A DNA stretch of 64,000 bases from Vicinamibacteria bacterium. GTDB lineage: Bacteria; Acidobacteriota; Vicinamibacteria; Fen-336. Each line of letters starts with the position of its first letter. Position 1 is the first letter of the stretch. Made by a program: the position numbers and the translations under genes. The stretch is from NCBI GenBank assembly GCA_023701125.1, contig JAMPXO010000003.1:32391-96390 (forward strand), in the 5' to 3' direction. The notes beneath the pieces were generated by a model that did no database searches, was not told the origin of the DNA, and saw nothing but the letters and a program-made list of their open reading frames with translations. This document shows positions 2,214 to 63,550 of this stretch, in pieces.

Positions 2214-3230
2214 TTGCCGACTCCCCCTCCCCCGTCCGTTAATAGCACGAACGTTCGCTCTAGAAAGGCGCCTCTGGCGTTGCGACTCGCTGGCGGATCG
2301 ATCCGCACGCTCGGTGCCGTCTCGCGCTCGGCGGCGGCTGTTCTTGCGGAGCACCTCTTCCTCTCGCCGCCCCGCTTCCCGGCGCCCGCCCGCGAGCGGG
2401 CCGCCTTTGCGCAGGCCCGACCCACGGCGATCGACAGCCCGGAAGGCCGGCTGCGACTGTGGCGCTTCGACGAGCGCCCCGTGGACGTGCTGCTGCTGCA
2501 CGGCTGGGGCGGCCGGTCGAGCCAGATGAGCGCTTTCGTCGCACCCCTGCGTGCGGCCGGCCTGGGGGTCGCAGCGCTCGACGGCCCGGCCCATGGGGCG
2601 TCGGCGGGGCGGCTCGCCACCGTACCCGGGTTCGCACGCGCTCTCCTCGCGGCGCATGCCGTACTCAGGTTCCGGGCGGTCGTCGCGCACTCCATGGGCG
2701 GCGCGGCCACGGGCGTCGCGGTCGGCCGCCACGGCCTCGCCCTCGACGCGGCGGTGCTGATCGGTTCGCCTGCGACGCCGAGCCGTTTCCTGCGCGACTT
2801 CGTCGACGCCGTCGCCCTGCCCGCGGGCATCGAGGCGGCCCTGCTGCGCCGGCTGGCGATCCGCACCGGGCTGACCCTGGCGGACATCGACATCACGTCG
2901 CTCGGTCCCACCCTGAGCGGCGGCGCCCTGGTCATCCACGACCGCGCCGACCGCGAGGTCCCGCACGCCGACGCCGAGGCGATCGCCCACGCCTGGCGCG
3001 GCGCGGAACTGCTGACGACGGCCGGCCTCGGCCACCGCCGCATCCTGCGCGACCCCCACGTCGTCGCCGCCGCCTGTCGCTTCGTGGCTGCGGCCCTCGG
3101 CCACCCGGTCCGCGGCTGCGTGACGCCGGGCTGCCTCGATGTCGCGACGCAACCCGGTGTGCGCTGCGAGCGCTGCGCGCTCGACGCCTTCCTGTTCGAT
3201 CCCCACGCGCGGTGGGCCCCGGCGGCCTGA
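2214..3230 (+). CDS. alpha/beta-fold hydrolase with Cys-rich C-terminal tail
   Basis: LLLHGWGG oxyanion region and AHSMGG nucleophile elbow. C-terminal CVTPGC...VRCERC. The start is uncertain: TTG 2214, or CTG 2274 / TTG 2280 downstream of an operator-like palindrome. Confidence 0.75.
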   Translation: MPTPPPPSVNSTNVRSRKAPLALRLAGGSIRTLGAVSRSAAAVLAEHLFLSPPRFPAPARERAAFAQARPTAIDSPEGRLRLWRFDERPVDVLLLHGWGGRSSQMSAFVAPLRAAGLGVAALDGPAHGASAGRLATVPGFARALLAAHAVLRFRAVVAHSMGGAATGVAVGRHGLALDAAVLIGSPATPSRFLRDFVDAVALPAGIEAALLRRLAIRTGLTLADIDITSLGPTLSGGALVIHDRADREVPHADAEAIAHAWRGAELLTTAGLGHRRILRDPHVVAAACRFVAAALGHPVRGCVTPGCLDVATQPGVRCERCALDAFLFDPHARWAPAA

Positions 3231-3261
3231 GGCGCCCGTCGCGGGGCTATGCTCGCGCCCT

Positions 3262-4362
3262 ATGAGGGTTGCGAGAGGCTTCCTGCCCGCCCTGGCGTTC
3301 TGTGCCGTCGTCCCCTCCATCGGCGCCGCCCAGCCCGCGAGCGGGCCCGTCTGGCTCAAGGGCAGCCTGCACACCCACACCGATCGCAGCGACGGCGACA
3401 CCGCGCCGGAAGTGGTCGTGCGCTGGTACCGGGAGCACGGCTACGGCTTCCTCGCGATCACGGATCACGACCGGATCACCGAACCGGCGCCACTCGCGGA
3501 AGCCGCGGGTCCCGACCTGCTGCTAGTCCCGGCCGAAGAAGTGACCGGCCTCGCCCTTCCTTCCGACGGGCGCAAGGTCCCGGTCCACGTCAACGCCTTC
3601 GTTCCGCGAGAGGTGATCCCACCGTTCAAGGGGGGCACGCCAGCGGAGGCGCTCGCGCAGAACGTGGCGCGGGCGCGGGCGGCGGGGGCCCTGGTCCTCG
3701 TCAATCACCCCAACTTCGGCTGGGCGCTGACGGCGGACGACCTGAAGGCCGCGGCCCCGGGCTTCCGCCTGCTCGAGATCTTCAGCGGCCATCCGCTCGT
3801 CCACTTCCTGGGCGGCGGCGGCGCGCTCTCGGCGGAGGCGCTGTGGGATGCGTTGCTCACGGCCGGCCACCGCGTCCACGGCGCCGCCGTCGACGACTCG
3901 CACCACTTCGCGGGCGAGTGCACGCCGGCCCGCGCCTGCCCGGGCCGCGGTTGGGTGGTCGTCCGGGTTGCCGAGCGCACACCCGCGGCCGTGCTGGCGG
4001 CACTCGAGCGCGGCGACTTCTACGCCTCGAACGGTGTCGCCCTGCGCGACGTGCGGGCGACCGAGGCCAGCCTCGAGCTGACGATCGAACCGCAGAAGAG
4101 CTTCCGTTATCGCACGGAGTTCGTGGGCTCCGGTGGCCGCGTGCTGGCCTCGATCGAGGGCGAGTCCGCCTCCTGGCGCTTCAGGGGCGACGAGGGCTAC
4201 GTTCGCGCCCGCGTCACCGACTCGATGGGCCGCCGGGCCTGGACCCAGCCGGTCTTTGTCCCGGACGGGGGCTTGGGGGCGGAGGAGCTGCGTTCGCGAC
4301 TGAGCCCCCATGGGACCGGCGCCGGGCTCCGCCCGGTGTCGGAAACCGACGAATCGCGCTGA
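3262..4362 (+). CDS. PHP-domain (CehA/McbA-like) metal-dependent phosphoesterase, secreted
   Basis: ATG 3262 is in frame within ORF 3139..4362. Signal peptide MRVARGFLPALAFCAVVPSIGAA and the motif GSLHTHTDRSDGD. The last ~30 codons come from a dispersed repeat. Confidence 0.75.
   Translation: MRVARGFLPALAFCAVVPSIGAAQPASGPVWLKGSLHTHTDRSDGDTAPEVVVRWYREHGYGFLAITDHDRITEPAPLAEAAGPDLLLVPAEEVTGLALPSDGRKVPVHVNAFVPREVIPPFKGGTPAEALAQNVARARAAGALVLVNHPNFGWALTADDLKAAAPGFRLLEIFSGHPLVHFLGGGGALSAEALWDALLTAGHRVHGAAVDDSHHFAGECTPARACPGRGWVVVRVAERTPAAVLAALERGDFYASNGVALRDVRATEASLELTIEPQKSFRYRTEFVGSGGRVLASIEGESASWRFRGDEGYVRARVTDSMGRRAWTQPVFVPDGGLGAEELRSRLSPHGTGAGLRPVSETDESR
4267..4347 (+). repeat. dispersed copy of the 85-bp GC-rich hairpin repeat family
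   Basis: gggggcttgggggcggaggagctgcgttcgcgactgagcccccatgggaccggcgccgggctccgcccggtgtcggaaacc. Near-identical to 60277-60358 and homologous to the tandem units at 56306-56560. Confidence 0.8.
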
Positions 4363-4369
4363 ACGCCTG

Positions 4370-4948
4370 CTACAGGCCGATCTCGTCCGCGATCGGCTTG
4401 AGCGCTTCGATCAGGAAGCCGACGTGCTCGTCGAGCGGGCGGCCGAGGACCTCGGCGCCGCCGTAGACGTAGGTGCGGTCGACCGAGCGCGCGAAGGCCT
4501 TGTCCTTCAGCTTCTTCGTGACCGACTCGACCGGCAGGTCGGCGATCTTCTTCGTCGGCCGCACCTTGACCGCCGCGCCGATGAAGCCGACCAGCTCGTC
4601 GCAGGCGTAGATCGCCTTCTTGAGCGGCGTGTCGCGCGGGATCTTCATGTAGTCGGCGTGGGAGCAGATCGCCTCGACGATCTCCTCCGGGTAGCCCCGC
4701 TCGCGCAGGATGCGGGCGCCGACGTGGAGGTGGGTCTCCTCGGTCGGGTTCTGCTCGTAGTCGAAGTCGTGCAGCAGGCCGACGATCCCCCACTTCTCCA
4801 CCTCGGCGGGATCGGTGATGCCGAACCAGCCGGCGTAGGCGCGCATGGCCTGCTCGACGCCGCGGCCGTGCTTGCGCAAGGCGTCCGACTGGGTGAACTC
4901 GAACAGCAGGGCTTCGGCCTCGGCCCGGGTCGGCACAAGTTCGCTCAT
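4370..4948 (-). CDS. HD/HDIG-domain phosphohydrolase
   Basis: ATG at 4948 (MSELVPTRAEAEALL...) inside the longer ORF 4370..5431. Motifs LLHDFDY and HADY. 192 aa. Confidence 0.8.
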   Translation of the reverse strand: MSELVPTRAEAEALLFEFTQSDALRKHGRGVEQAMRAYAGWFGITDPAEVEKWGIVGLLHDFDYEQNPTEETHLHVGARILRERGYPEEIVEAICSHADYMKIPRDTPLKKAIYACDELVGFIGAAVKVRPTKKIADLPVESVTKKLKDKAFARSVDRTYVYGGAEVLGRPLDEHVGFLIEALKPIADEIGL

Positions 4949-10479: not shown

Positions 10480-11217
10480 CTACGAAAGCTCCCCCTTGTC
10501 GAGGTGGAAGGTGACCTGGGCGCGGGCGGCGGCCCGTGGGTCGTGGGTCACCATCAGCACCGTCTTGCCGAAATCGCCCACCAGGTGGTGGAGCATGTCG
10601 AGGATCTCGTCCGCGCTGTGGCGGTCGAGGTCACCCGTCGGCTCGTCGCACAGCAGGAAGGTCGGGTCGCCGACGATCGCACGCGCGATGGCGACCCGCT
10701 GCTGCTGGCCGCCGGAGAGCTCGCGTGGCTTGTGGTCCATGCGGTCGTCGAGACCGACGACCCGCAGCGCGGTCGCCACCCGCTCGCGCCGCTCGGCCTT
10801 CGACAGCGGCAGCAGCAGCAGCGGCAGCTCGACGTTGCGGAAGGCCGACAGCACCGGGATCAGGTTGTACATCTGGAACACGAAGCCGACGTGGCGCGCC
10901 CGCCACGTCGTCAGCTTCGACCGCGAGAGCGACGTGATCGGGTCGCCGGCCACGCGGATGATCCCGGCCGACGGCACGTCGAGCCCGCCGATCAGGTTCA
11001 GCAGCGTGCTCTTGCCGGAGCCGGAGGGCCCCATCAGGGCGACGAACTCGCCGCGGTCGACGTCGAGGTTGACGTCCGTGAGGACGTGCAGGTCTTCGCT
11101 GCCGCGCCTGTAGTTCTTGGCGACGCCACGCAGACAGATCAGCGCTTCCGAGGGGGCCGTCGCTCCTACCCGGGCCATGATGGCGCTCATGCTACCGCCG
11201 CCCGAAAGAGCTTGCAT
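10480..11217 (-). CDS. ABC transporter ATP-binding protein (MacB/LolD-like)
   Basis: Walker A GPSGSGKST, signature LSGGQQQRVAIARA, Walker B LLCDEPTG. The start is ambiguous: ATG at 11217, 11190 or 11178. Confidence 0.9.
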   Translation of the reverse strand: MQALSGGGSMSAIMARVGATAPSEALICLRGVAKNYRRGSEDLHVLTDVNLDVDRGEFVALMGPSGSGKSTLLNLIGGLDVPSAGIIRVAGDPITSLSRSKLTTWRARHVGFVFQMYNLIPVLSAFRNVELPLLLLPLSKAERRERVATALRVVGLDDRMDHKPRELSGGQQQRVAIARAIVGDPTFLLCDEPTGDLDRHSADEILDMLHHLVGDFGKTVLMVTHDPRAAARAQVTFHLDKGELS

Positions 11218-14167: not shown

Positions 14168-14659
14168 CGAGCGCAGGGGCACGCGGGCCAGCGGCCCGTC
14201 GAAGGCCTCCTGCAGGGCGCGCAGTCGCTCCTCCCACGGGCCGAGGGTCCAGCAGCGATCCGGCGGCAACTCCGTCAACGGGGGCCCGGTCTCGTCGTTG
14301 AGCGGGCAGATGTCCCGCTGCTCGACCACGGTGCCGGGGTCCGCCTCGTCTTCCTCGACCCAGCGCAGCGGCAGCCCCTGGGTGCGGCAGACGTAGGGGC
14401 GCAGCGCGTAGACGCGGCAGGCGCCGTCGGCGTCGAGGAAAGCACAGGTGCCCTCGGGCCCCGGCTCGCCTTCCGCCAGCAGCTCCGGCGCGCCGGCGCG
14501 GATGCGCTCGGCCTCGACGGCGAAGACCGTGATGCCGTCGACGCAACACGACGAACAGCCGCGACCGCAGCGCAGCCGCGATCCGTGCGCGGCAGCGACC
14601 CGATTCGCGGCGGCGTCCACCGCGGCGTGGAAGGCCTCGACGTCAGCCGTGCGGTTCAC
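14144..14659 (-). CDS. YkgJ-family (UPF0153) cysteine-cluster protein
   Basis: GTG 14659 overlaps the upstream stop (GTGA). CxxxCxxCC motif CGRGCSSCC plus CAFLDADGACRVYALRPYVCR. Confidence 0.75.
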   Translation of the reverse strand: MNRTADVEAFHAAVDAAANRVAAAHGSRLRCGRGCSSCCVDGITVFAVEAERIRAGAPELLAEGEPGPEGTCAFLDADGACRVYALRPYVCRTQGLPLRWVEEDEADPGTVVEQRDICPLNDETGPPLTELPPDRCWTLGPWEERLRALQEAFDGPLARVPLRSLFARSRR

Positions 14660-27982: not shown

Positions 27983-28644
<662 letters not shown>

Positions 28645-52889: not shown

Positions 52890-54094
52890 GCCAGGCGGAG
52901 CGCGAGGTCGTGATCGTGGGTGGCGGCCCGGCCGGTGCCGCCGCGGCGCTGTTCCTGCGGCAGCAGGGCGTCGACGTGCTGCTGCTCGAAGCCGCCCGTT
53001 TTCCCCGCGACAAGATCTGCGGCGAGGGCGTGTCGCCCGAGGCCTGGCGGCTGTTGCGAGCGATGGGGGCCGCAGAGGACGTCGCCCGACTCGCGCCGCG
53101 GCCGCTGCGCGGCATGCGCGTGATCGCGCCCGACGGAACGGTCTTCGAGGGCGTCTACCGGCGCGGCGGCGAGACGCTGACCGGGTTCGCGGTGCGCCGG
53201 ACGCGCCTCGACGCCACCCTGCTCGACGCCGCCCGCCGCGCGGGAGCGGAAGTCCGCGAGGGCGCCCGGGTTGCCGAGGCCGTTCGGTCCGCTGGCGGCG
53301 TCACCGGCGTCCGGATGCAGGACGGCGAATCGATCCGGGCCCGCTTCGTGCTCGGCTGCGACGGCCGCTGGGGGGCCTGCGCGCGGGCCGTGGGCGGCCT
53401 GCGCGGATCCCGCTTCTTCCGGCGCTTCGCGTTGCGCCTTCACCTCGAAGGCGTGGCGGGCCTTGGCTCCGTCGGCGAAATGCACGTGGGCCGCGGCGGG
53501 TACTGCGGCATCGCCCCGCTCTCGGACACGTCGGCCAACGTGGCCTTCGTGCTGGACGCTTCCGCCTTCGCCGCCGCGGCCGGCCGGCTCGAGGACTTCG
53601 CCCGCGAGACGCTCGCGCAGCGCTTCCCCGCGGTCGCGGCCCGCTGTCGCGACGCCAAGTGGCTGGGACCGCCGCGCGCCATCGGGCCGCTCGCGGTCTC
53701 GGTCCCCCGCCGCGCCCTGCCCGGCCTCCTGCTCCTGGGGGACGCCGCAGGCTTCTACGATCCCTTCACCGGCGAAGGCGTGACCCTCGCCCTGCGCAGC
53801 GCCGAACTCGCCGTCGGGCCCGTGGTCGACGCCCTGCACGGCCGCGTGTCGTCTGCGGCTGCCGCCGCGCGCTACGAGCGCGAGTATGCTGGCGCCACTC
53901 GCGACAAGTTCCGCCTCAACCGCCTGCTGCAGTGGGTCGTGGCCTGGCCGGCGGTCGCCAACGCGGTCGCCCGCCGCTTGCGCGCGCGCCCGCGCACGTG
54001 CGACGAACTGGTCGGCATCGCCGGCGATTTCGTGCCGGCGCGGCGCGCCCTGGGCCCCCGCTTCCTGCTCCAGTTGCTCCAGCCCGGCGCCTGA
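52886..54094 (+). CDS. FAD-dependent oxidoreductase, geranylgeranyl-reductase/aromatic-hydroxylase family (SrsC-like by context)
   Basis: Start overlaps the methyltransferase stop (GTGA). [17 protein letters not shown] dinucleotide fold, [25 protein letters not shown]. Confidence 0.8.
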
Positions 54095-54183
54095 CGGCGG
54101 GCCCGAAACCGGGGGGCGGCTCCGCGGGGGGTGCAGTAGAATTCCTTTTTCTCGGCAGCCTGCCGTTCCCGGAGGTAATTCGC

Positions 54184-56298
54184 GTGGCCACGACCGCCCT
54201 CAGCCAGGAGACCGGACTCGACCGCCAGACTCTGGTGGGGATCTACCGGACGATGTACCAGTCGCGCCGGGTCGACGACAAGGAGATCCAGCTCAAGCGC
54301 CAGAACAAGATCTTCTTCCAGATCAGCGGCGCGGGCCACGAAGCGGTGCTGGCGGCGGCGGGCCTCGTGCTCAAGCCCAACCACGACTGGTTCTACGCGT
54401 ACTACCGCGACCGCGCGCTGATGCTGGCGCTGGGCATGACGCCGCTGGAGATGCTGCTCTCCGCGACCGGCGCCGCGGACGACCCGAACTCCGGCGGCCG
54501 CCAGATGCCCTCGCACTGGGGTCACGCGGGCCTCAACATCGTCACCAAGTCTTCGCCCACCGGCACCCAGTTCCTGCAGGCGGTCGGCTGCGCGGAGGCC
54601 GGCATCTACGCTGCCGCCCAGGAGGGAGCCGGCACGAAGCTCGGGCTGCCCTTCCGCTCGGACGAAATCGTGTACGTCTCGACCGGCGACGGCACGACGT
54701 CCGAGGGCGAGTTCTGGGAGAGCCTCAACACCGCCTGCAATCGCAAGCTGCCCGTCCTCTACCTGGTCGAAGACAACGGCTACGCGATCTCGGTCCCGGT
54801 CGAGGTCCAGACGGCCGGTGGCAGCATCTCGAAGCTGGTCTCTTCCTTCCCCAACCTGCTGGTGCGCGAGGTGGACGGTTGCGACCCGCTGGCGAGCCTC
54901 GGCACCCTGCGCGAGGCGGCGACCTGGTGTCGCGAGCGACGCGGGCCTGCGCTCGTCCACGCCAAGGTGATCCGGCCGTACTCGCACTCGTTGTCCGATG
55001 ACGAGGCCCTGTACCGCCCCGGCCACGAGCGCGAGGCCGACGCGGCGCGCGACCCGCTGGTCTCCTGGCCGGCCTTCCTGCTACGCGAGGGACACGCGAC
55101 CGAGGCCGAACTGGAGGCGCTGCGCGCCGAGGTCGACCGCGAGGTGGCCGAGGCCGGCGATCTCGCCTGTGCCGCGCCCCAGCCCGAGCCGGCTTCAGCC
55201 CTGCTCCACGTCTACTCGCCCGAGGTCGACCCGACCTCGAAGGCGTTCGACACCGAGCCGGCCTTCGCGGGCGATCCCAAGACCGTCGTCGACCTGCTCA
55301 ACGCCTGCCTGCACGAGGAGATGGCTCGCGACCCGCGGGTCGTCGTCTTCGGCCAGGACGTCGCCGACTGCAGCCGCGAGGACAACCTGCCCCACGTCAA
55401 GGGCAAGGGCGGCGTGTTCAAGGTCACCCACAACCTGCAGCGGCGCTTCGGCGGTGAGCGCGTGTTCAACTCGCCGCTGGCCGAGGCCAACATCGTCGGC
55501 CGCGCGATCGGCATGGCCACCCGCGGGCTGAAGCCGGTGGTCGAGATCCAGTTCTTCGACTACATCTGGCCCGCGTACATGCAGATGCGCAACGAGCTGG
55601 CGCTGATCCGCTGGCGCTCGAACGGGGCGTTCAAGTGTCCCGCCGTCGTGCGCGTGACCTACGGCGGCTACCTCCAGGGCGGCGCCGTCTATCACTCCCA
55701 GTGCGGTGAGGTGCTGTTCACCCACATCCCCGGCCTGCGGGTCGTGCTGCCGTCGAACGCCGAGGATGCGAACGGCTTGCTGCGCACCGCGATCCGCTGC
55801 GACGACCCCGTGCTCTTCCTCGAGCACAAGCACCTGTACCGTCAGACCTACAACAAGGGCCGCAACCCCGGCCCCGACTACTGCATCCCGTTCGCCAAGG
55901 CGCGCACGGCGCGGCCCGGCAAGGACCTGACGATCGTCACCTTCGGCGCGCTCGTGCAGCGCAGCCTGGTGGCCGCCAAGCAGGTGGCCGAGAGCGACGG
56001 CATCGAGGCCGAGGTGATCGACCTGCGCACGCTGTCGCCCTACGACTGGGACGCGATCGCGGAGAGCGTGAAGCGCACTGGCAAGGTGATCGTGGCCCAG
56101 GAGGACCAGATCTCCTGGGGCTACACCGCGGAGATCGCGGCCCGCATCTCGGACGAGCTGTTCGAGTGGCTGGACGCCCCGGTCAAGCGCATCGGCGCCA
56201 CCGACACCTTCGTCGGCTACGCGCCGTCGCTCGAGGACTTCATCCTGCCCCAGATCCCGGGCATCGCCGCGGAGATCCGCAAGCTCGCCCGCTATTAG
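54184..56298 (+). CDS. 2-oxoacid dehydrogenase E1 component, fused alpha+beta subunits (TPP-dependent)
   Basis: GTG 54184 lies 8 nt after GGAGG. TPP motif [15 protein letters not shown]. The beta-like half carries [13 protein letters not shown]. 704 aa. Confidence 0.85.
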
Positions 56299-56305
56299 GA
56301 CTAGG

Positions 56306-56560
56306 TGGGGGTGCGGGGGCGGAGGAGCGTCCGTTCGCGCCGTAGCCCCCGCGGGACCGGCGACGGGTTCACCCCGGCGCTGGAACCCTATGGGGGTGCG
56401 GGGGCGGAGGAGCGTCCGTTCGCGACGTAGCCCCCGCGGGACCGGCGACGGGTTCACCCCGGCGGTGGAACCCTATGGGGGTGCGGGGGCGGAGAGCGTC
56501 CGTTCGCGCCGTAGCCCCCGCGGGACCGGCGACGGGTTCACCCCGGCGCCGGAACCCTAT
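56306..56560 (+). repeat. three head-to-tail copies (85, 85, 84 bp) of a GC-rich hairpin repeat
   Basis: Units start at 56306, 56391 and 56476. Unit: tgggggtgcgggggcggaggagcgtccgttcgcgccgtagcccccgcgggaccggcgacgggttcaccccggcgctggaacccta. They differ by 2-3 substitutions and a 1-nt deletion. Internal 8-bp stem gcgggggc/gcccccgc. Confidence 0.95.
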
Positions 56561-56928
56561 GGCTTGCTCGTGCCGGCTCGGCCGTAGCGGTCTTCGAGGC
56601 GGACGACGTCGTCCACCTCGGGCGTCGAGACCTCGAGGATGTCCGTGTCCTCGAGTCCGGTCATGCGGTGCAGGGTGCCGGGCGTGATGTGGTAGCTCTC
56701 GCCCGGGGCCATCTCGACCCGGCGCAGCTCGCCCGGCTCGTCCTTGCCCTTGACCTCGAACAGCAGCTTTCCGCTCTGGATCAGGATCGTCTCGTCCTTG
56801 ACCTCGTGGTACTGGAGGGACAGGCTCTCGCCCTTCTTCACGTGCAGCAGCTTGCCCACGTAGCGCTCGGTGCGCGCCCACCAGACCTCGTGCCCCCAGG
56901 GCTTTTCGACCCGCTTGTGCTCGGTCAC
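56557..56928 (-). CDS. cupin-domain protein (mannose-6-phosphate-isomerase type II C-terminal-like)
   Basis: KPWGHEVWW...SLQYHEVKDETILIQSG...PGTLHR cupin motifs. 123 aa. Confidence 0.8.
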   Translation of the reverse strand: MTEHKRVEKPWGHEVWWARTERYVGKLLHVKKGESLSLQYHEVKDETILIQSGKLLFEVKGKDEPGELRRVEMAPGESYHITPGTLHRMTGLEDTDILEVSTPEVDDVVRLEDRYGRAGTSKP

Positions 56929-56931
56929 GTC

Positions 56932-58671
56932 TCAGGACTCCCCGGCGTCGGCCGCGGCCAACGCCTCGTGCAGTTCCGTTCTCAGGTGCGATTCGACCGC
57001 AGCCGCGGACGACAGCCGCAGGGCGCGCAGCGTGGCCTCTCGCACGTGCGCCAGGTCCGCGGCCCGCAGGACCTGCTTGACGCGCGGGATCGCCGTCGGG
57101 CTCATCGACAGCTCGCGCGCGCCAAGGCCGGCCAGCACCAGCGATTGTAGCGGGTCGCCCGCCATCTCCCCGCAGACGCCGACCGGGCGGCCGGCGGCCC
57201 GCGCCTGGTCGAAGGCCGTGACGAGCAGCGCCAGCACCGCGGGGTGCAGTGGCTCGTAGAGGCTCGCCACCCGCGGGTCGGCGCGGTCCACGGCGAGCAG
57301 GTACTGGATCAGGTCGTTGGTGCCGATGCTGAAGAAATCCGCCGCCGGGGCGAGCTGGCCGAGCGTCAGCGCGGCGCTCGGGATCTCGATCATCACGCCG
57401 ACCGGCAGCTCGGCCGCGTACACCCGGCCCTCGGACTCCAGCTCCTGCGCCGTCTCCGCCAGGAACGCCCGCACCTCCGCGAGGTCGGACGCCCCGCGCA
57501 GGAACGGGAACAGGATGCGCAGCGGCCCGTGCACGGCAGCCCGCAGCAGCGCCCGCAGTTGCGGCCGGAAGGCGCCGGGGGCGCGGCTGAGCATGCGCAG
57601 TGCGCGCGGCCCGAGCGCCGGGTTGGGGCTCGAAGGTCCGCCCGGTGCGATGTCCTCGGGCCCCAGGTCCCAGACCCGGACCGTGACCGGGTGCGGGTGC
57701 ATCTGGTCCAGCAGGCGCCGGTACAACTCGTACTGACGCTCCTCGTCGAGGCTGCCGCGCCCGAGCAGGTACTCGCTGCGGAACAGGCCGATGCCCTCCG
57801 CGCCGTACTGCATTGCGGTCGCCGCTTCTTCGGCGAACTCCGCGTTGGCGAGCAGCGCGACGCGCACGCCGTCGCGCGAGGCCGCGGGCTCGCCGCGGGT
57901 CGACTGCAGGCTGATCTCGCGCCGCTGCTGGCGCTCGCGCAGCGCGCGAAAGCCCGCCACCACCGGTTCGGACGGCTCCACGACGAGGCGGCCCTGGGTG
58001 CCGTCGAGCACGACCAGCGCCCCGGGCGGAACCCGCTGGGTCGCGTCGCGCAGCCCGGCGACGGCCGGGATGCCACGCGAGCGGGCGAGGATCGCCGTGT
58101 GGTAGGTGCGCGAGCCGCCATCGAGGGCGATCCCCATCACCTTCGCCCAGTCCAGCTCGGCGGCCTCGGACGGGGTCAGGTCCTGGGCCACCAGCACCAC
58201 CGGCCCCGGCAGCCGCGCCAGCGACGGCCCGTCGGCGGCCCCGGCCAGGTTGAGCAGCACGCGCCCGAGCACGTCGTCGAGGTCGCTGCTGCGCTCCTTC
58301 AGGTACTCGTCTGTGAAGCCGTCGAACAACGCGTGCAACTGCTCGGAGACCTGGCGCAGGGCCCACTCGGCGTTGACGTGGTCCTGGCGCACGATGCCCG
58401 CGGCGCGATCGCGCAGCAGCGGATCCTCGAGCATCAGCAACTGGGCGTCGAAGATGTAGGCGTGGAGCGCGCCGACTTCGCGCGACAGCCGGGCCTTGAT
58501 CGCCTCGAGCTGCTTGCGCGACGCGGCGACGGCCCGCAGCAGCCGCTGCACCTCGCGCTCGACGGCATCCGGCGCGAGCAGCAGCCGGAACACCGGCACC
58601 CGCTCGCGCTCCATGACCAGCGCCTGGCCGACGGCGATTCCCGGCGAGACGCCGTTGCCGGTCAGCTCCAC
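56932..58671 (-). CDS. ptsI: phosphoenolpyruvate-protein phosphotransferase (PTS Enzyme I)
   Basis: Phospho-His region GGSRTYHTAILARSRGIPAV and a PEP-utilising TIM barrel (FFSIGTNDLIQY). 579 aa. Confidence 0.9.
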   Translation of the reverse strand: MELTGNGVSPGIAVGQALVMERERVPVFRLLLAPDAVEREVQRLLRAVAASRKQLEAIKARLSREVGALHAYIFDAQLLMLEDPLLRDRAAGIVRQDHVNAEWALRQVSEQLHALFDGFTDEYLKERSSDLDDVLGRVLLNLAGAADGPSLARLPGPVVLVAQDLTPSEAAELDWAKVMGIALDGGSRTYHTAILARSRGIPAVAGLRDATQRVPPGALVVLDGTQGRLVVEPSEPVVAGFRALRERQQRREISLQSTRGEPAASRDGVRVALLANAEFAEEAATAMQYGAEGIGLFRSEYLLGRGSLDEERQYELYRRLLDQMHPHPVTVRVWDLGPEDIAPGGPSSPNPALGPRALRMLSRAPGAFRPQLRALLRAAVHGPLRILFPFLRGASDLAEVRAFLAETAQELESEGRVYAAELPVGVMIEIPSAALTLGQLAPAADFFSIGTNDLIQYLLAVDRADPRVASLYEPLHPAVLALLVTAFDQARAAGRPVGVCGEMAGDPLQSLVLAGLGARELSMSPTAIPRVKQVLRAADLAHVREATLRALRLSSAAAVESHLRTELHEALAAADAGES

Positions 58672-59379: not shown

Positions 59380-60248
59380 GACAGCCTCGCGTCGCGATGG
59401 CGGACCTGGACGCCGTAGCGGCCCTTGCGAAGGGCCTCGCCGATGCGGGTCGCCAGCATCACCGAGCGGTGGCGGCCGCCGGTGCAACCGACTGCGATCG
59501 TCACGTAGCTCCTCCCTTCCTTGCGGTGCCGAGGCAGCACGAACGCCAGCAGCCCCATCACCTTGCGCAGGAACCGCGCCGTGTCCGGCTGGGCGTCGAG
59601 GAAGCGCTGCACGGGGGCCTGCTCGCCTGTCAGCCGCCGCAGCCGCGGCACGAAGTTGGGGTTGGGCAGGAAGCGGGCGTCGAACACCAGGTCCGCCTCG
59701 GCCGGCACCCCGTACTTGTAGCCGAACGAGGTGACGGTGACCATCATCGGCGCGTCCGCCGTGCGGGCGCCGAAGCGCTCCCGCACCCAGGCCCGCAACT
59801 CGTGGACCGTGAATGCCGAGGTGTCGACGATGCGGTCGGCGGTCTTGCGGATCGGCCGCAGCGCCTCGCGCTCCTGGCGCAGTCCCTCGACCACCGGCTC
59901 GTCCACCGCCAGCGGGTGCGGCCGCCGGGTTTCGCTGAAGCGGCGAACGAGGGTGCGCTCGTCGGCCTCCAGGAACAGCAGCTCGACCGGCAGCCCGCGC
60001 TGGCGCAGGCTGCGCAGCGCCGTCGGGAACTGGCGGGTGAAGGCGGGCTCGCGCAGGTCCACCACCAGCGCCGCCCTGCGCAGGCTGGGCGTGTCGCGGA
60101 TCAGCTCCGCGAAACGGGGGATCAGGGCGGTCGGCAGGTTGTCGACGCAGAAGAAGCCGAGGTCCTCCAGTGCGCGCAGGACGTGCGTCTTGCCGGAGCC
60201 CGAGAGCCCGGTCACGATCACCAGCTTGTCGGTCTGCTCGGCCTTCAT
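59376..60248 (-). CDS. rapZ: RNase adapter / nucleotide-binding protein RapZ (YvcJ)
   Basis: ATG 60248. Walker A GLSGSGKT, DLGFFCVDNLP, C-terminal GCTGGRHRSV. 290 aa. Confidence 0.9.
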   Translation of the reverse strand: MKAEQTDKLVIVTGLSGSGKTHVLRALEDLGFFCVDNLPTALIPRFAELIRDTPSLRRAALVVDLREPAFTRQFPTALRSLRQRGLPVELLFLEADERTLVRRFSETRRPHPLAVDEPVVEGLRQEREALRPIRKTADRIVDTSAFTVHELRAWVRERFGARTADAPMMVTVTSFGYKYGVPAEADLVFDARFLPNPNFVPRLRRLTGEQAPVQRFLDAQPDTARFLRKVMGLLAFVLPRHRKEGRSYVTIAVGCTGGRHRSVMLATRIGEALRKGRYGVQVRHRDARLS

Positions 60249-61315
60249 GCCCGCCCCCGCGCCGCCTTCCGCCGTGTGGGGGCTTGGGGGCGGAGGAGCT
60301 CCGTTCGCGACGTAGCCCCCATGGGACCGGCGACGGGCTCCGCCCGGCGTCGGAACCCGTCGGCCGCTGGCCCGGCGATGATCGCCTCCAGTCGGTGGGC
60401 GAAGCGCTGCGCGCCGTCGAGGCCCCGCTCCTTGAGCAGGTGGTTGCGAGCCGCCACCTCGATCAGGATCGCCAGACTGCGGCCGGGCGCCACCGGCATC
60501 CGCAGCCGCGGCACGTCGACGCCCAGCACGTCGACGCTCTCCTGCTGGAGCCCGAGACGGTCGTACTCCTTGCCCGGCTCCCAGCGCTCGAGGTCCACCA
60601 CCAGCTCCACGCGCTGGCTGACCCGCAGCGACGAGACGCCGTACAGGTCGCGGATGTTGATCACGCCGAGGCCGCGCAGCTCCATGTGGTCGCGCAGCAG
60701 CAGCGGCGAGGTGCCGACCAGGGTGTCGCCGATGCGCTTGACCTCCACGACGTCGTCCGCGACCAGCCCGTGGCCGCGGTCGACGAGGTCGAGCGCGCAC
60801 TCCGACTTGCCGATGCCGCTCTCGCCGCTGATCAGCACGCCGAGGCCGAAGACGTCGACCAGCACGCCGTGCAACTGCGCCCGGCGCGCGAGCTGCTCGT
60901 CGAGGTACGCCGTCAGCCGCTTGATGAACGGCGTCGACTCCAGCGGCGTCACCAGCAGCGGCACGCCGCGGCTGTCGGCCGCCTGGACCAGCTCGCGTGG
61001 CGGCGGCAGGCCCTTGGTGACGACGAAGCAGGTCACGTCGCAGGCCGCCAGCCGGGCCAGCAGTCGCCGGCGGGCCACGGCCGACAGCTTCTGGAGGTAG
61101 GTCGACTCGCTGACGCCGAGGATCTGGACGCGACCGTAACGCAGGTACTCGAAGTAGCCGGACAGCGCCAGCCCGGGCCGCTGTACGCGCGACTGCAGGA
61201 TGGCGCGGGCGAGGCCGGTGCGGCCGGCCACCAGCCGCAGCTTCAGCTCCGCTCGCCGCTCCCGCAGCAGGCGGCGGACGCTGACGGCGGGCTCCGGTGC
61301 CGCCTTCCCCGCCAC
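60245..61315 (-). CDS. hprK: HPr kinase/phosphorylase with repeat-derived C-terminal extension
   Basis: Walker A GESGIGKSE, LVADDVV, GLGVINIRDLYG. The ORF reads through the repeat and stops in an ATGA overlap with rapZ. Confidence 0.85.
   Translation of the reverse strand: MAGKAAPEPAVSVRRLLRERRAELKLRLVAGRTGLARAILQSRVQRPGLALSGYFEYLRYGRVQILGVSESTYLQKLSAVARRRLLARLAACDVTCFVVTKGLPPPRELVQAADSRGVPLLVTPLESTPFIKRLTAYLDEQLARRAQLHGVLVDVFGLGVLISGESGIGKSECALDLVDRGHGLVADDVVEVKRIGDTLVGTSPLLLRDHMELRGLGVINIRDLYGVSSLRVSQRVELVVDLERWEPGKEYDRLGLQQESVDVLGVDVPRLRMPVAPGRSLAILIEVAARNHLLKERGLDGAQRFAHRLEAIIAGPAADGFRRRAEPVAGPMGATSRTELLRPQAPTRRKAARGRA
60277..60358 (+). repeat. dispersed copy of the 85-bp repeat family, embedded in the 3' end of hprK
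   Basis: tgggggcttgggggcggaggagctccgttcgcgacgtagcccccatgggaccggcgacgggctccgcccggcgtcggaaccc. About 90% identical to 4267-4347 by eye. Confidence 0.8.
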
Positions 61316-62752: not shown

Positions 62753-63550
62753 CTACGCTCCCGCCGGTCGGGGCGCCTCGGCGTCGAGCCGGAAACCCTC
62801 GCCGAGATAGACCCGTCGGACTTCTTCGTCGCCAGCGAGCGCCTCGGGCGTGCCCGCGCGGAACACCTCGCCGTCGCGAAGAATATAGGCGCGGTCGGTG
62901 ATCTTCAACGTCTCGCGCACGTTGTGGTCGGTGATCAGCACGCCGATCCCACGGTCCTTCAGGTGACTGATGATCTTCTGGATGTCGATCACGGCGATCG
63001 GGTCGATGCCCGCGAACGGCTCGTCCAGCAGGATGAAGGACGGCTCGGTCGCCAGCGCCCGAGCGATCTCCAGCCGGCGCCGTTCGCCACCCGACAGGGT
63101 GTCGGCCCGCTGCCGGGCGAGGCCGTGGATGCCCAGTTCCTCGAGCAGTTCGCGGGTGCGCTGGCGGCTCTCGCCCTGCGGCTCGCCGAGCGCCTCGAGG
63201 ATGGCCAGCACGTTGTCCTGCACGGACATCTTGCGGAAGACGCTGGCCTCCTGCGGCAGGTAGCCGATGCCCGCCCGCGCCCGCTCGTACATCGGCAGGT
63301 CCGTGATGTCGTCCTCGCCCAGCATCACGGTGCCGCCGTCCGGCCGGGCCAGGCCGACGACCATGTAGAAGGTCGTGGTCTTGCCGGCCCCGTTGGGCCC
63401 GAGCAGGCCGACCACCTCGCCCTCCTGGACGTGGAGGTCCACGCCGCGCACGACCGTGCGTCGGCCGTAGCTCTTGGTCAGTCCGCGGGCGTCGAGGGTT
63501 TTCATCGGCGTCCCGATGGTAGCCCGAGCGGCCGCGTCGGCGTCGGTCAT
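62753..63550 (-). CDS. lptB: LPS export ABC transporter ATP-binding protein
   Basis: Walker [14 protein letters not shown], signature [18 protein letters not shown] 63550 overlaps the lptA stop (ATGA). Confidence 0.9.

Follow-up and report, generated by a model that had tools for sequence, protein, structure and literature searches.

A 64,000-nucleotide (nt) stretch of contig JAMPXO010000003.1 from a Vicinamibacteria bacterium (about 72% G+C; hereafter the window) carries a tandem array of a short, hairpin-bearing repeat at 56306–56562, between the ends of two convergent genes. With a probability of roughly 75%, we read this array as three locally amplified copies of a small, non-autonomous selfish element that has spread within Vicinamibacteria genomes and has hardly been met outside this group of soil and groundwater Acidobacteria to date. 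The element is dispersed, is present or absent at the same sites in close relatives, decays by partial deletion, and lies inside genes as well as in all intergenic contexts. [quoted passage not shown]

One element in tandem and dispersed copies

The array is by a wide margin the strongest tandem repeat that Tandem Repeats Finder reports in the window (period 85, 3.0 copies, 96% matches, score 486). Its units lie head-to-tail on the + strand, starting at 56306, 56391 and 56476 with lengths of 85, 85 and 84 nt, as a preliminary description of this sequence had it, and every unit is an 82- or 81-nt core followed by CTA. Tandem Repeats Finder and our covariance model both delimit unit 1 (56306–56390; core 56306–56387; covariance-model match of 96.3 bits), unit 2 (56391–56475; 82-nt core; 98% identical to unit 1, from which two substitutions separate it) and unit 3 (56476–56559; 81-nt core), which has a 1-nt loop deletion (GGAGGAGC to GGAGAGC) and one more substitution. 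The two to three substitutions and single deletion that the description gave for the units are thereby borne out.

Covariance-model and motif searches found exactly five copies in the window, all on the + strand and in agreement with the repeat finder, and no decayed remnants. The two dispersed single copies noticed previously are real and are now placed at 4266–4346 and 60277–60357, each an 81-nt core on the same strand as the array. The array units are 98% identical among themselves as against 66–72% (ungapped) to these two, which, together with the constant CTA spacer, leads us to propose that a single inserted element was amplified to three units by unequal recombination or slippage. Other arrays exist: a protein with a glycogen-debranching N-terminal (GDE_N) domain has a 28-residue (84-nt) period, and locus L008 has two adjacent, diverged copies. 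Repeated insertion next to an existing copy is an alternative origin for the array that L008 would fit. The second L008 copy (1406–1492, − strand), directly upstream of the canonical one, has recognisable G5 boxes and hairpin 2, and its hairpin-1 loop differs. As this copy escapes the covariance model, the counts given here understate the breadth of the family.

Beyond the window, further copies occur in the same genome and in related genomes, as befits the element family that had been suspected. A strict pattern scan of one genome per species returned eight loci, six of them in two Vicinamibacteria/Acidobacteria metagenome-assembled genomes (MAGs; ACD1 and ACD2). The other two are canonical copies on short contigs binned as Armatimonadetes (L005) and Actinomycetota (L008), bins that are unchecked; these assignments could reflect mis-binning of Vicinamibacteria contigs or horizontal transfer of the element. 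A metagenome scan added at least two new real copies in two further MAG assemblies, although its pattern, confined to the hairpin-1 loop, was too loose and mostly returned GC-rich coding sequence (Ala-Glu-Glu...Pro-Phe-Ala). Copies are thus present in at least four other MAG assemblies, mostly of Vicinamibacteria/Acidobacteria; viral contigs had no match to two patterns. The window HprK is 100% identical to MCM2254315.1, from a Vicinamibacteria MAG, and three more element-bearing proteins belong to the same accession series (HisF, MCM2256983.1; FHA-domain protein, MCM2254958.1; GDE_N protein, MCM2255982.1), so the source genome has the element at at least seven loci.

The near identity of the units and the origin of the sequence from a MAG would suit a tandem duplication confined to this locus or an artefact of assembly, either of them without a wider family. 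The exact unit count aside, this is refuted as a complete explanation by the two further copies in the window, by the distinct substitutions that the array units bear and by copies with diverse flanks in independent assemblies and raw-read assemblies (NCBI, JGI, Logan); we give it next to no weight.

Two unlike hairpins and a strand-specific fold

The core of 81–82 nt runs from TGGGGG to GGAACC and contains two unlike hairpins. We first took it to be 86–88 nt long, including a 3′ CGNCGG, until an empty site in a close relative placed that hexamer in the target. In unit 1, hairpin 1 (56313–56352, + strand) pairs GCGGGGGC (56313–56320) with GCCCCCGC (56345–56352), the 8-bp stem already recognised in the preliminary description, around a near-invariant 24-nt loop, GGAGGAGCGTCCGTTCGCGCCGTA; across genomes this loop, GGAGGAGC(G)TCCGTTCGCGACGTA, hardly changes. 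A second subfamily has TGGGGGC/GCCCCCA as its stem, and in L035 both arms are one base shorter.

Hairpin 2 of unit 1 (56353–56388, + strand), identified by covariation and RNA folding, consists of GGG-A-CCGGCGACGGG (56353–56367), the loop TTCAC and CCCGGCGCTGG-AA-CCC (56373–56388). In the array this makes an 11-bp stem, CCGGCGACGGG/CCCGGCGCTGG, closed by GGG/CCC; the loop measures 3–5 nt across copies. It takes the place of the second stem first suggested, GGGTTC/GAACCC, which is complementary in the array copy but is not a conserved pairing: five of its six pairs vary only by breaking, with no covariation.

We assessed the structure in an alignment (A2) of 15 copies from the window and other genomes. 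Standard pairs fill 93.6% of cells over the whole structure and 93.8% in hairpin 2, and both partners have changed in six pairs, of which hairpin 2 contains five. Column shuffling never attained the observed value in 500 trials, and when the 3′ partner was slid by one to three columns, pairing was 38–54% with no or one pair changed on both sides. Hairpin 2 thus covaries, to the point of having been rewritten by compensatory changes in L083, L001 and L006, and hairpin 1 contributes one compensatory pair: position 10–47 of A2 is UA in eight copies and CG in seven and is never broken, which makes real the C:G-to-T:A exchange reported from the window copies.

The pairing is also asymmetric between strands. 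There are nine G·T wobble pairs on the + strand and no A·C pairs, and the + strand of the dispersed window copies folds better than shuffled sequences (z = −5.0 and −3.2), whereas the − strand does not. From the wobbles and the better folding we conclude that the + strand is the one that must fold; the hairpins would be kept because it has to do so as a single-stranded nucleic acid.

Inverted pairs detected in four copies with their flanks were all internal (hairpin 1, hairpin 2 or alternatives to them), and none of them formed terminal inverted repeats. The whole window gave no Rfam match at the gathering threshold. A full-length match to the small RNA Pxr in a permissive scan (14.5 bits against a threshold of 80, E = 5), which a second scan did not return, is attributed to chance; the other sub-threshold match was to CsrC (8.4 bits against 279).

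Two features of the loops stand apart from these results. The hairpin-1 loop opens with GGAGGAG (56321–56327, and at the same place in every copy), a perfect Shine–Dalgarno-like sequence from which array unit 3 alone differs (GGAGAG), and whose complement, CUCCUCC, mimics the anti-Shine–Dalgarno sequence. In the CTCC-loop subfamily, the hairpin-1 loop starts with GGGCGGAG, the perfect complement of CTCCGCCC in the loop and 3′ arm of hairpin 2 (60288–60295 with 60338–60345, and 4277–4284 with 4327–4334). This complementarity, absent in the array subfamily, could provide an alternative fold or a long-range pairing.

Empty, occupied and decayed sites

Two of the three window sites are empty in relatives. 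Three syntenic relatives (L130, L131 and L132) share the order rpoN–hprK–rapZ–EIIA–HPr–ptsI–cupin with a convergent E1 dehydrogenase gene, their HprK being 85% identical, and their 21-kb loci contain no copy of the element. All three have 4-bp overlaps between hprK and rapZ and between the cupin and E1 genes, the latter at CTAG, with no spacer where the window has its array. The palindrome CTAG, at 14650–14653 in each relative, is the shared stop codon of both strands and corresponds to the array position.

The window has the array between the E1 stop at 56298 and the convergent cupin stop inside the last unit, where the preliminary description had put it: the cupin TAG reads CTA on the + strand at 56557–56559 and is the final triplet of the array. 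The flanks read TAT TAG GACTAGG (array) CTATGG CTT GCT C in the window and TAC TAG GGC CTC at the empty site of the relatives, so that a CTAGG-like motif stands on both array flanks, with the E1 stop upstream and the cupin stop formed by the CTA after the last unit. The element would have landed on the overlapping stop codons of the two genes. In L083, too, the convergent gene stops at CTA directly after the element core, and in L035 it stops within the element's 3′ part.

The boundaries are sharpest at hprK. A closer relative has an HprK that is 96% identical and 27 residues shorter, and its hprK DNA is shorter by exactly 81 nt, from TGGGGG to GGAACC; this exact difference sets the core at 81–82 nt. 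The hexamer that follows the element in the window hprK is CGTCGG, and the empty site already has CGCCGG. CGNCGR, which follows most copies, therefore belongs to the target, or reflects microhomology, and lies outside the element.

The third site, at 4266–4346, shows the later fate of a copy. It provides the tail of a CehA/McbA-family hydrolase, which is the same in a 99%-identical homolog and absent in homologs at about 70% identity; in an 87%-identical ortholog the element is decayed, with its 3′ third left and a G-to-T change there that makes a stop codon. At a second, internal site in this family, one homolog has a diverged full copy in frame and another an 18-nt 5′ remnant, where the window has none. 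Together with hprK and the array, these states make gain, retention and decay all visible.

Two other loci carry possible scars. In L134, the convergent spacer after a CehA/McbA homolog (1960–2070) holds degenerate element fragments in both orientations, which suggests that a single place was hit more than once or rearranged. Immediately upstream of the L001 copy, GGGACGGAACCC (2709–2730, − strand) resembles the element minus the whole interior of hairpin 2 and may be a deletion footprint or a chance resemblance.

In-frame insertion within unrelated genes

Real open reading frames (ORFs) were picked by a codon-position G+C test and direct reading. Within the window, the copy at 60277–60357 lies antisense to the hprK–rapZ operon and contributes, in frame D, to the C-terminal tail of HprK. 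In hprK (60245–61315, − strand) the Hpr_kinase_C domain ends at residue 308 of 356, and the tail includes 27 element-derived residues that the public annotation (MCM2254315.1, 356 aa) also contains. The frame (60245–60390, − strand) still ends in ATGA overlapping the rapZ start (ATG, minus strand, 60248–60246), and judged from this arrangement, hprK–rapZ translational coupling looks preserved despite the insertion. Frame A of the copy at 4266–4346 supplies the CehA/McbA-family ORF (3139–4362) with its C-terminal tail (GGLGAEELRSRLSPHGTGAGLRPVSE...); this copy lies in a convergent gap with an HD-domain gene that ends at 4370.

Elsewhere the element interrupts protein domains. In HisF (P0003), residues 1–138 and 166–280 align to consecutive positions of a solved HisF, with nothing lost. 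In an acyl-CoA synthetase (L006/L104) the element sits between PGERG and GELLLRGP, and the AMP-binding match ends exactly at the insert. It adds GGLGAEELRSRRSPHGTGDGLRPATEP to a 1153-residue BNR/sortilin-like protein (L007), whose Sortilin-Vps10 match is split. Three more hosts came from an exhaustive peptide search: an FHA-domain protein, a membrane protein of 597 residues and the GDE_N protein, in which the GDE_N domain is split by two tandem opposite-strand copies and the C-terminus is formed by two sense copies. A six-frame peptide query gave three matches at E ≤ 0.001, a low number because a 27–29-residue match scores little among 5.8 billion sequences.

Sense inserts are all read in one frame and antisense inserts in the exact codon complement, so that every insert keeps the same phase with respect to the element. 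Read in sense, the peptide is GGLGAEELRSRRSPHGTG.G..P..EP, its codon-for-codon antisense complement is GFRRRAEPVAGPMGA.SRTELLRPQ.P, and the predicted insert peptide includes SPHGTGDGLRPASEPV. In all five translated copies for which DNA was available the core is 81 nt (27 codons), as against 80 or 82 nt in eight of ten untranslated copies and a multiple of three (3n) in the other two (Fisher test, about 0.007, in which the array units are not independent and the sample comes partly from a frame-A query). The 82-nt versions, read in the sense frame, run into TAG. In one 127-residue protein (P0001) the element is read in another frame and the protein then looks out of frame, as a non-3n insertion would make it.

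The constant phase, the 81-nt translated cores and the TAG in the 82-nt versions speak for translation of the inserts, with selection as the filter, and against splicing. Removal as an intervening sequence from RNA or protein, in the manner of a mini-intron or intein, would leave host proteins unaffected and would suit a conserved, strand-specific structure found in housekeeping genes such as hisF. Yet every known self-splicing intron or intein is far larger than 81 nt, the ribozyme and intron families of Rfam give no match, and copies lie antisense inside genes too. Translated copies are all 3n and stop-free while most untranslated ones are not, a contrast that only translation of the insert would lead one to expect. 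Splicing out is so improbable that we set it aside.

Another possibility is a mobile peptide-coding module selected at the protein level, as a flexible loop or recognition motif, with the hairpins incidental. All translated copies do share one phase and a recognisable peptide, the N-terminal half of which, GGLGAEELRSRRSPHGTG, is well conserved. However, the majority of copies are intergenic, and the length of most of these is not divisible by three; the compensatory changes in hairpin 2 rewrite the peptide and keep the pairs (GDGLRPASE, GGGFTPPPE, GADFTSAPE); the opposite-strand reading is an unrelated peptide; and the host proteins are unrelated to each other. We consider such a module very unlikely. 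A selfish element would persist inside genes as RPEs do, with survival restricted to stop-free 3n copies that add a hydrophilic loop rich in Gly, Pro, Ser and Arg.

Copies between genes

Between genes the element takes up every arrangement. Copies lie in convergent spacers (the array, the window copy at 4266, L005, L035 and L083, that is, five of about 13 loci), in a divergent spacer between a BON-domain gene and sthA (L004), antisense between genes of one operon (the window copy at 60277 and L001) and upstream of a gene whose product has a signal peptide (L008). There is no one regulatory role that suits convergent, divergent, operonic and intragenic settings alike.

A selected cis-acting RNA would be placed for its function, as a terminator or attenuator, an mRNA-stabilising 3′ hairpin or a small RNA gene. 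Such a role would account for two stable hairpins, the + strand folding of the dispersed copies, the asymmetric wobble pairs, the frequency of convergent gene ends, the near-invariant loop with its GGAGGAG and the strong conservation of one orthologous occupied site described below. It does not account for copies antisense to hprK–rapZ, in the divergent promoter region of L004 and in ORFs in both orientations, for sites that are empty in close relatives with the same gene order, or for copies that decay by deletion. There is no T-tract: the hairpins are followed by AACCC or GGGAC, and no terminator-like site was found in 55800–57100 on either strand, nor any promoter-like site at the array. 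Nor does any Rfam family correspond, Pxr and CsrC being the sole sub-threshold matches. We therefore judge a cis-acting RNA unlikely as the general explanation; a selected RNA role at some loci is possible. The preliminary description had offered a REP/MITE-like or terminator-type family: a dispersed, hairpin-bearing family it is, but the terminator reading falls with the missing T-tract and with copies in all contexts and both orientations, and REP and MITE membership fall on the comparisons that follow.

Relation to known palindromic elements

The closest analogues are the RPEs, above all RPE-1 to RPE-3, the protein-coding palindromic repeats of Wolbachia and intragenic REPs. RPEs are 100–150 bp long and lie in ORFs of Rickettsia and Wolbachia without destroying them (PMC3767692). 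A review of prokaryotic MITEs singles them out for frequent in-frame insertion in unrelated genes, suggests that this may happen elsewhere too, and notes that MITEs can be co-transcribed and form in-frame fusions (PMC10969869). Like RPEs and the Wolbachia repeats, our element is a dispersed short palindrome between genes and in pre-existing ORFs, where it keeps the frame. The hallmark of RPEs, presence in ORFs without frame loss as well as between genes, is found here in HisF, the acyl-CoA synthetase, the BNR/sortilin-like, GDE_N and FHA-domain proteins and the membrane protein. Each RPE family likewise adds a conserved peptide to unrelated proteins, no transposase or mechanism is known for either, and domains are split in the same way, here those of the HisF, AMP-binding, sortilin-like and GDE_N proteins.

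The differences are nonetheless clear. The hosts are free-living Acidobacteria of 72% G+C rather than reduced, A+T-rich intracellular Alphaproteobacteria, and the element measures 81–82 nt as against roughly 100–150 bp. It has two distinct hairpins, a near-invariant 24-nt loop, head-to-tail arrays and readings in both orientations. It is polymorphic between relatives 96% identical, whereas RPE-1 to RPE-3 insertions are reported to be shared among Rickettsia orthologs (PMC3767692). Host and length thus place it outside the RPE families, a separation based on their descriptions rather than on a comparison of consensus sequences; kinship with RPEs in sequence would not be expected.

REPs are single palindromes of 20–40 bp, mostly in inverted dimers, whose stem bears GTAG or CGTC as a tag at its foot; those of the CGTC type have 8–9-bp stems starting with AT pairs, loops of 4–5 nt and a CCA tail, and intragenic REPs encoding 20–30 residues are known from several species (PMC3733652). 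The element resembles REPs in its G+C-rich hairpins, in its enrichment after genes or between convergent genes, in having some intragenic copies and in the single-strand, hairpin-dependent mobilisation that has been proposed for them. We considered membership because both GTAG and CGTC occur in the element, but it does not fit the family definitions: it is 81–82 nt long, has two unlike hairpins with G+C-only stems and forms head-to-tail copies, and its GTAG lies inside the hairpin-1 loop, where it varies (TGAG, GGAG, GCAG). MITEs such as Correia/NEMIS, ERIC and BOX are also small, non-autonomous and dispersed, but the element has no terminal inverted repeats, no consistent target-site duplication and no known related insertion sequence.

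Palindrome-associated elements (PATEs) derived from IS200/IS605 and other HUH/Y1-mobilised elements share further traits with it: terminal inverted repeats are lacking, as is a duplication at the best-resolved site, each end has a sub-terminal hairpin, folding is strand-asymmetric, all window copies have a single orientation, and the empty site already has the short conserved flank CGNCGR. The target of IS608-type elements is 5′ of the left end on the folding strand; here the conserved flank is 3′ of that strand, the two hairpins are unlike, and no TnpA or REP-associated tyrosine transposase (RAYT) was seen.

The mycobacterial interspersed repetitive units (MIRUs), a class of variable-number tandem repeats (VNTRs), are a further comparison. 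Their 46–101-bp units form head-to-tail arrays of variable number between operon genes and carry reading frames that run through the repeat and overlap the next start codon. HprK does the same, its frame running through the element to the ATGA overlap with rapZ. MIRUs differ in being oriented with the operon; to our knowledge, they are not hairpin elements, and we know of no reports of them inside enzyme domains. For Vicinamibacteria or other Acidobacteria, the literature searched, the coverage of which is incomplete, held no report of an element of this kind.

A possible route of spread, and its weak points

How might such an element move? We consider it most likely that a single-stranded DNA intermediate is recognised by a putative transposase or recombinase acting in trans, possibly of the HUH/Y1 type. 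A single-strand route of that type is the most natural reading of the strand-specific fold, the sub-terminal hairpin at each end and the pre-existing conserved flank. No transposase domain appeared among the Pfam matches of neighbouring genes or in nine scanned window and host proteins, most window ORFs being unscanned.

Several points weigh against a selfish mobile element. Neither a transposase nor a longer autonomous relative nor terminal inverted repeats have been found, and the case for mobility is built on presence/absence and differing sites in sequence comparisons. The evidence on target-site duplication conflicts between sites and is inconsistent: there is none at hprK, where the net insertion is exactly 81 nt, while direct repeats of 5–8 bp at inconsistent distances occur at L083 (CCCTACTT), L003 (CGACGG) and the array (CTAGG/CTATGG versus CTAGGG where the site is empty). 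At one orthologous occupied site two species are 94% identical, and in the coding DNA that flanks it 77–95%; this could hint at a local function. The frame statistics rest partly on frame-A peptide searches and are to that extent biased, and compensatory changes in a palindrome can also come from templated repair without selection. All data come from MAGs, and the unit count of a 257-bp tandem array in a short-read metagenome assembly may be wrong.

A bolder version of the selfish-element reading, which we put forward tentatively and hold to be less probable than not by some way, is a recently active mobile element adapted to gene interiors of free-living bacteria. It would insert in either orientation and in one codon phase next to a CGNCGR-like target through a strand-specific, single-stranded hairpin intermediate and a candidate enzyme, its sense and complement readings both having evolved to be stop-free. 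If true, this would generalise the Rickettsia protein-coding palindromes beyond intracellular bacteria, and fresh insertions, filled and empty between 96%-identical genomes, would offer a system for finding the mechanism.

Protein-coding palindromes have so far been known mainly from Rickettsia and Wolbachia, with scattered intragenic REPs, and their spread is unexplained. A family in free-living, G+C-rich Acidobacteria shows the phenomenon to be broader, and its occupied and empty sites in near-identical genomes, with nearly identical copies in one genome, supply fresh junctions for work on mechanism. Annotation is affected as well: public records of HprK, HisF and other proteins carry the element, and 27-residue inserts or tails could pass as lineage-specific features or assembly errors. 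For strain typing in metagenomes, the array and the polymorphic sites are potential markers.

Neighbouring genes and other observations

The E1 dehydrogenase ORF (53659–56298, + strand) is given here as the longest ORF, its orthologs having 704 aa, and its stop lies 7 nt before the array. The convergent gene (56557–56928, − strand) encodes a cupin or mannose-6-phosphate-isomerase-like protein whose stop codon is the spacer after the last array unit.

Unrelated to the element, the window contains repeat families D2, D4 and D6 (10636–11072, 28138–28574 and 63014–63441), among which a spacing of 17502 recurs. They resemble paralogous genes for ABC-transporter ATPases on the − strand, since TCTTGCCGGAGCCGGAGGGCCC, when reverse-complemented, encodes the Walker A motif GPSGSGK. 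Next to E1 in L130, 16836–19677 encodes a type III polyketide synthase, a methyltransferase and an FAD-dependent monooxygenase; this group, which may be a small-molecule biosynthetic cluster, is syntenic with the window upstream of E1, at about 50–53.6 kb.

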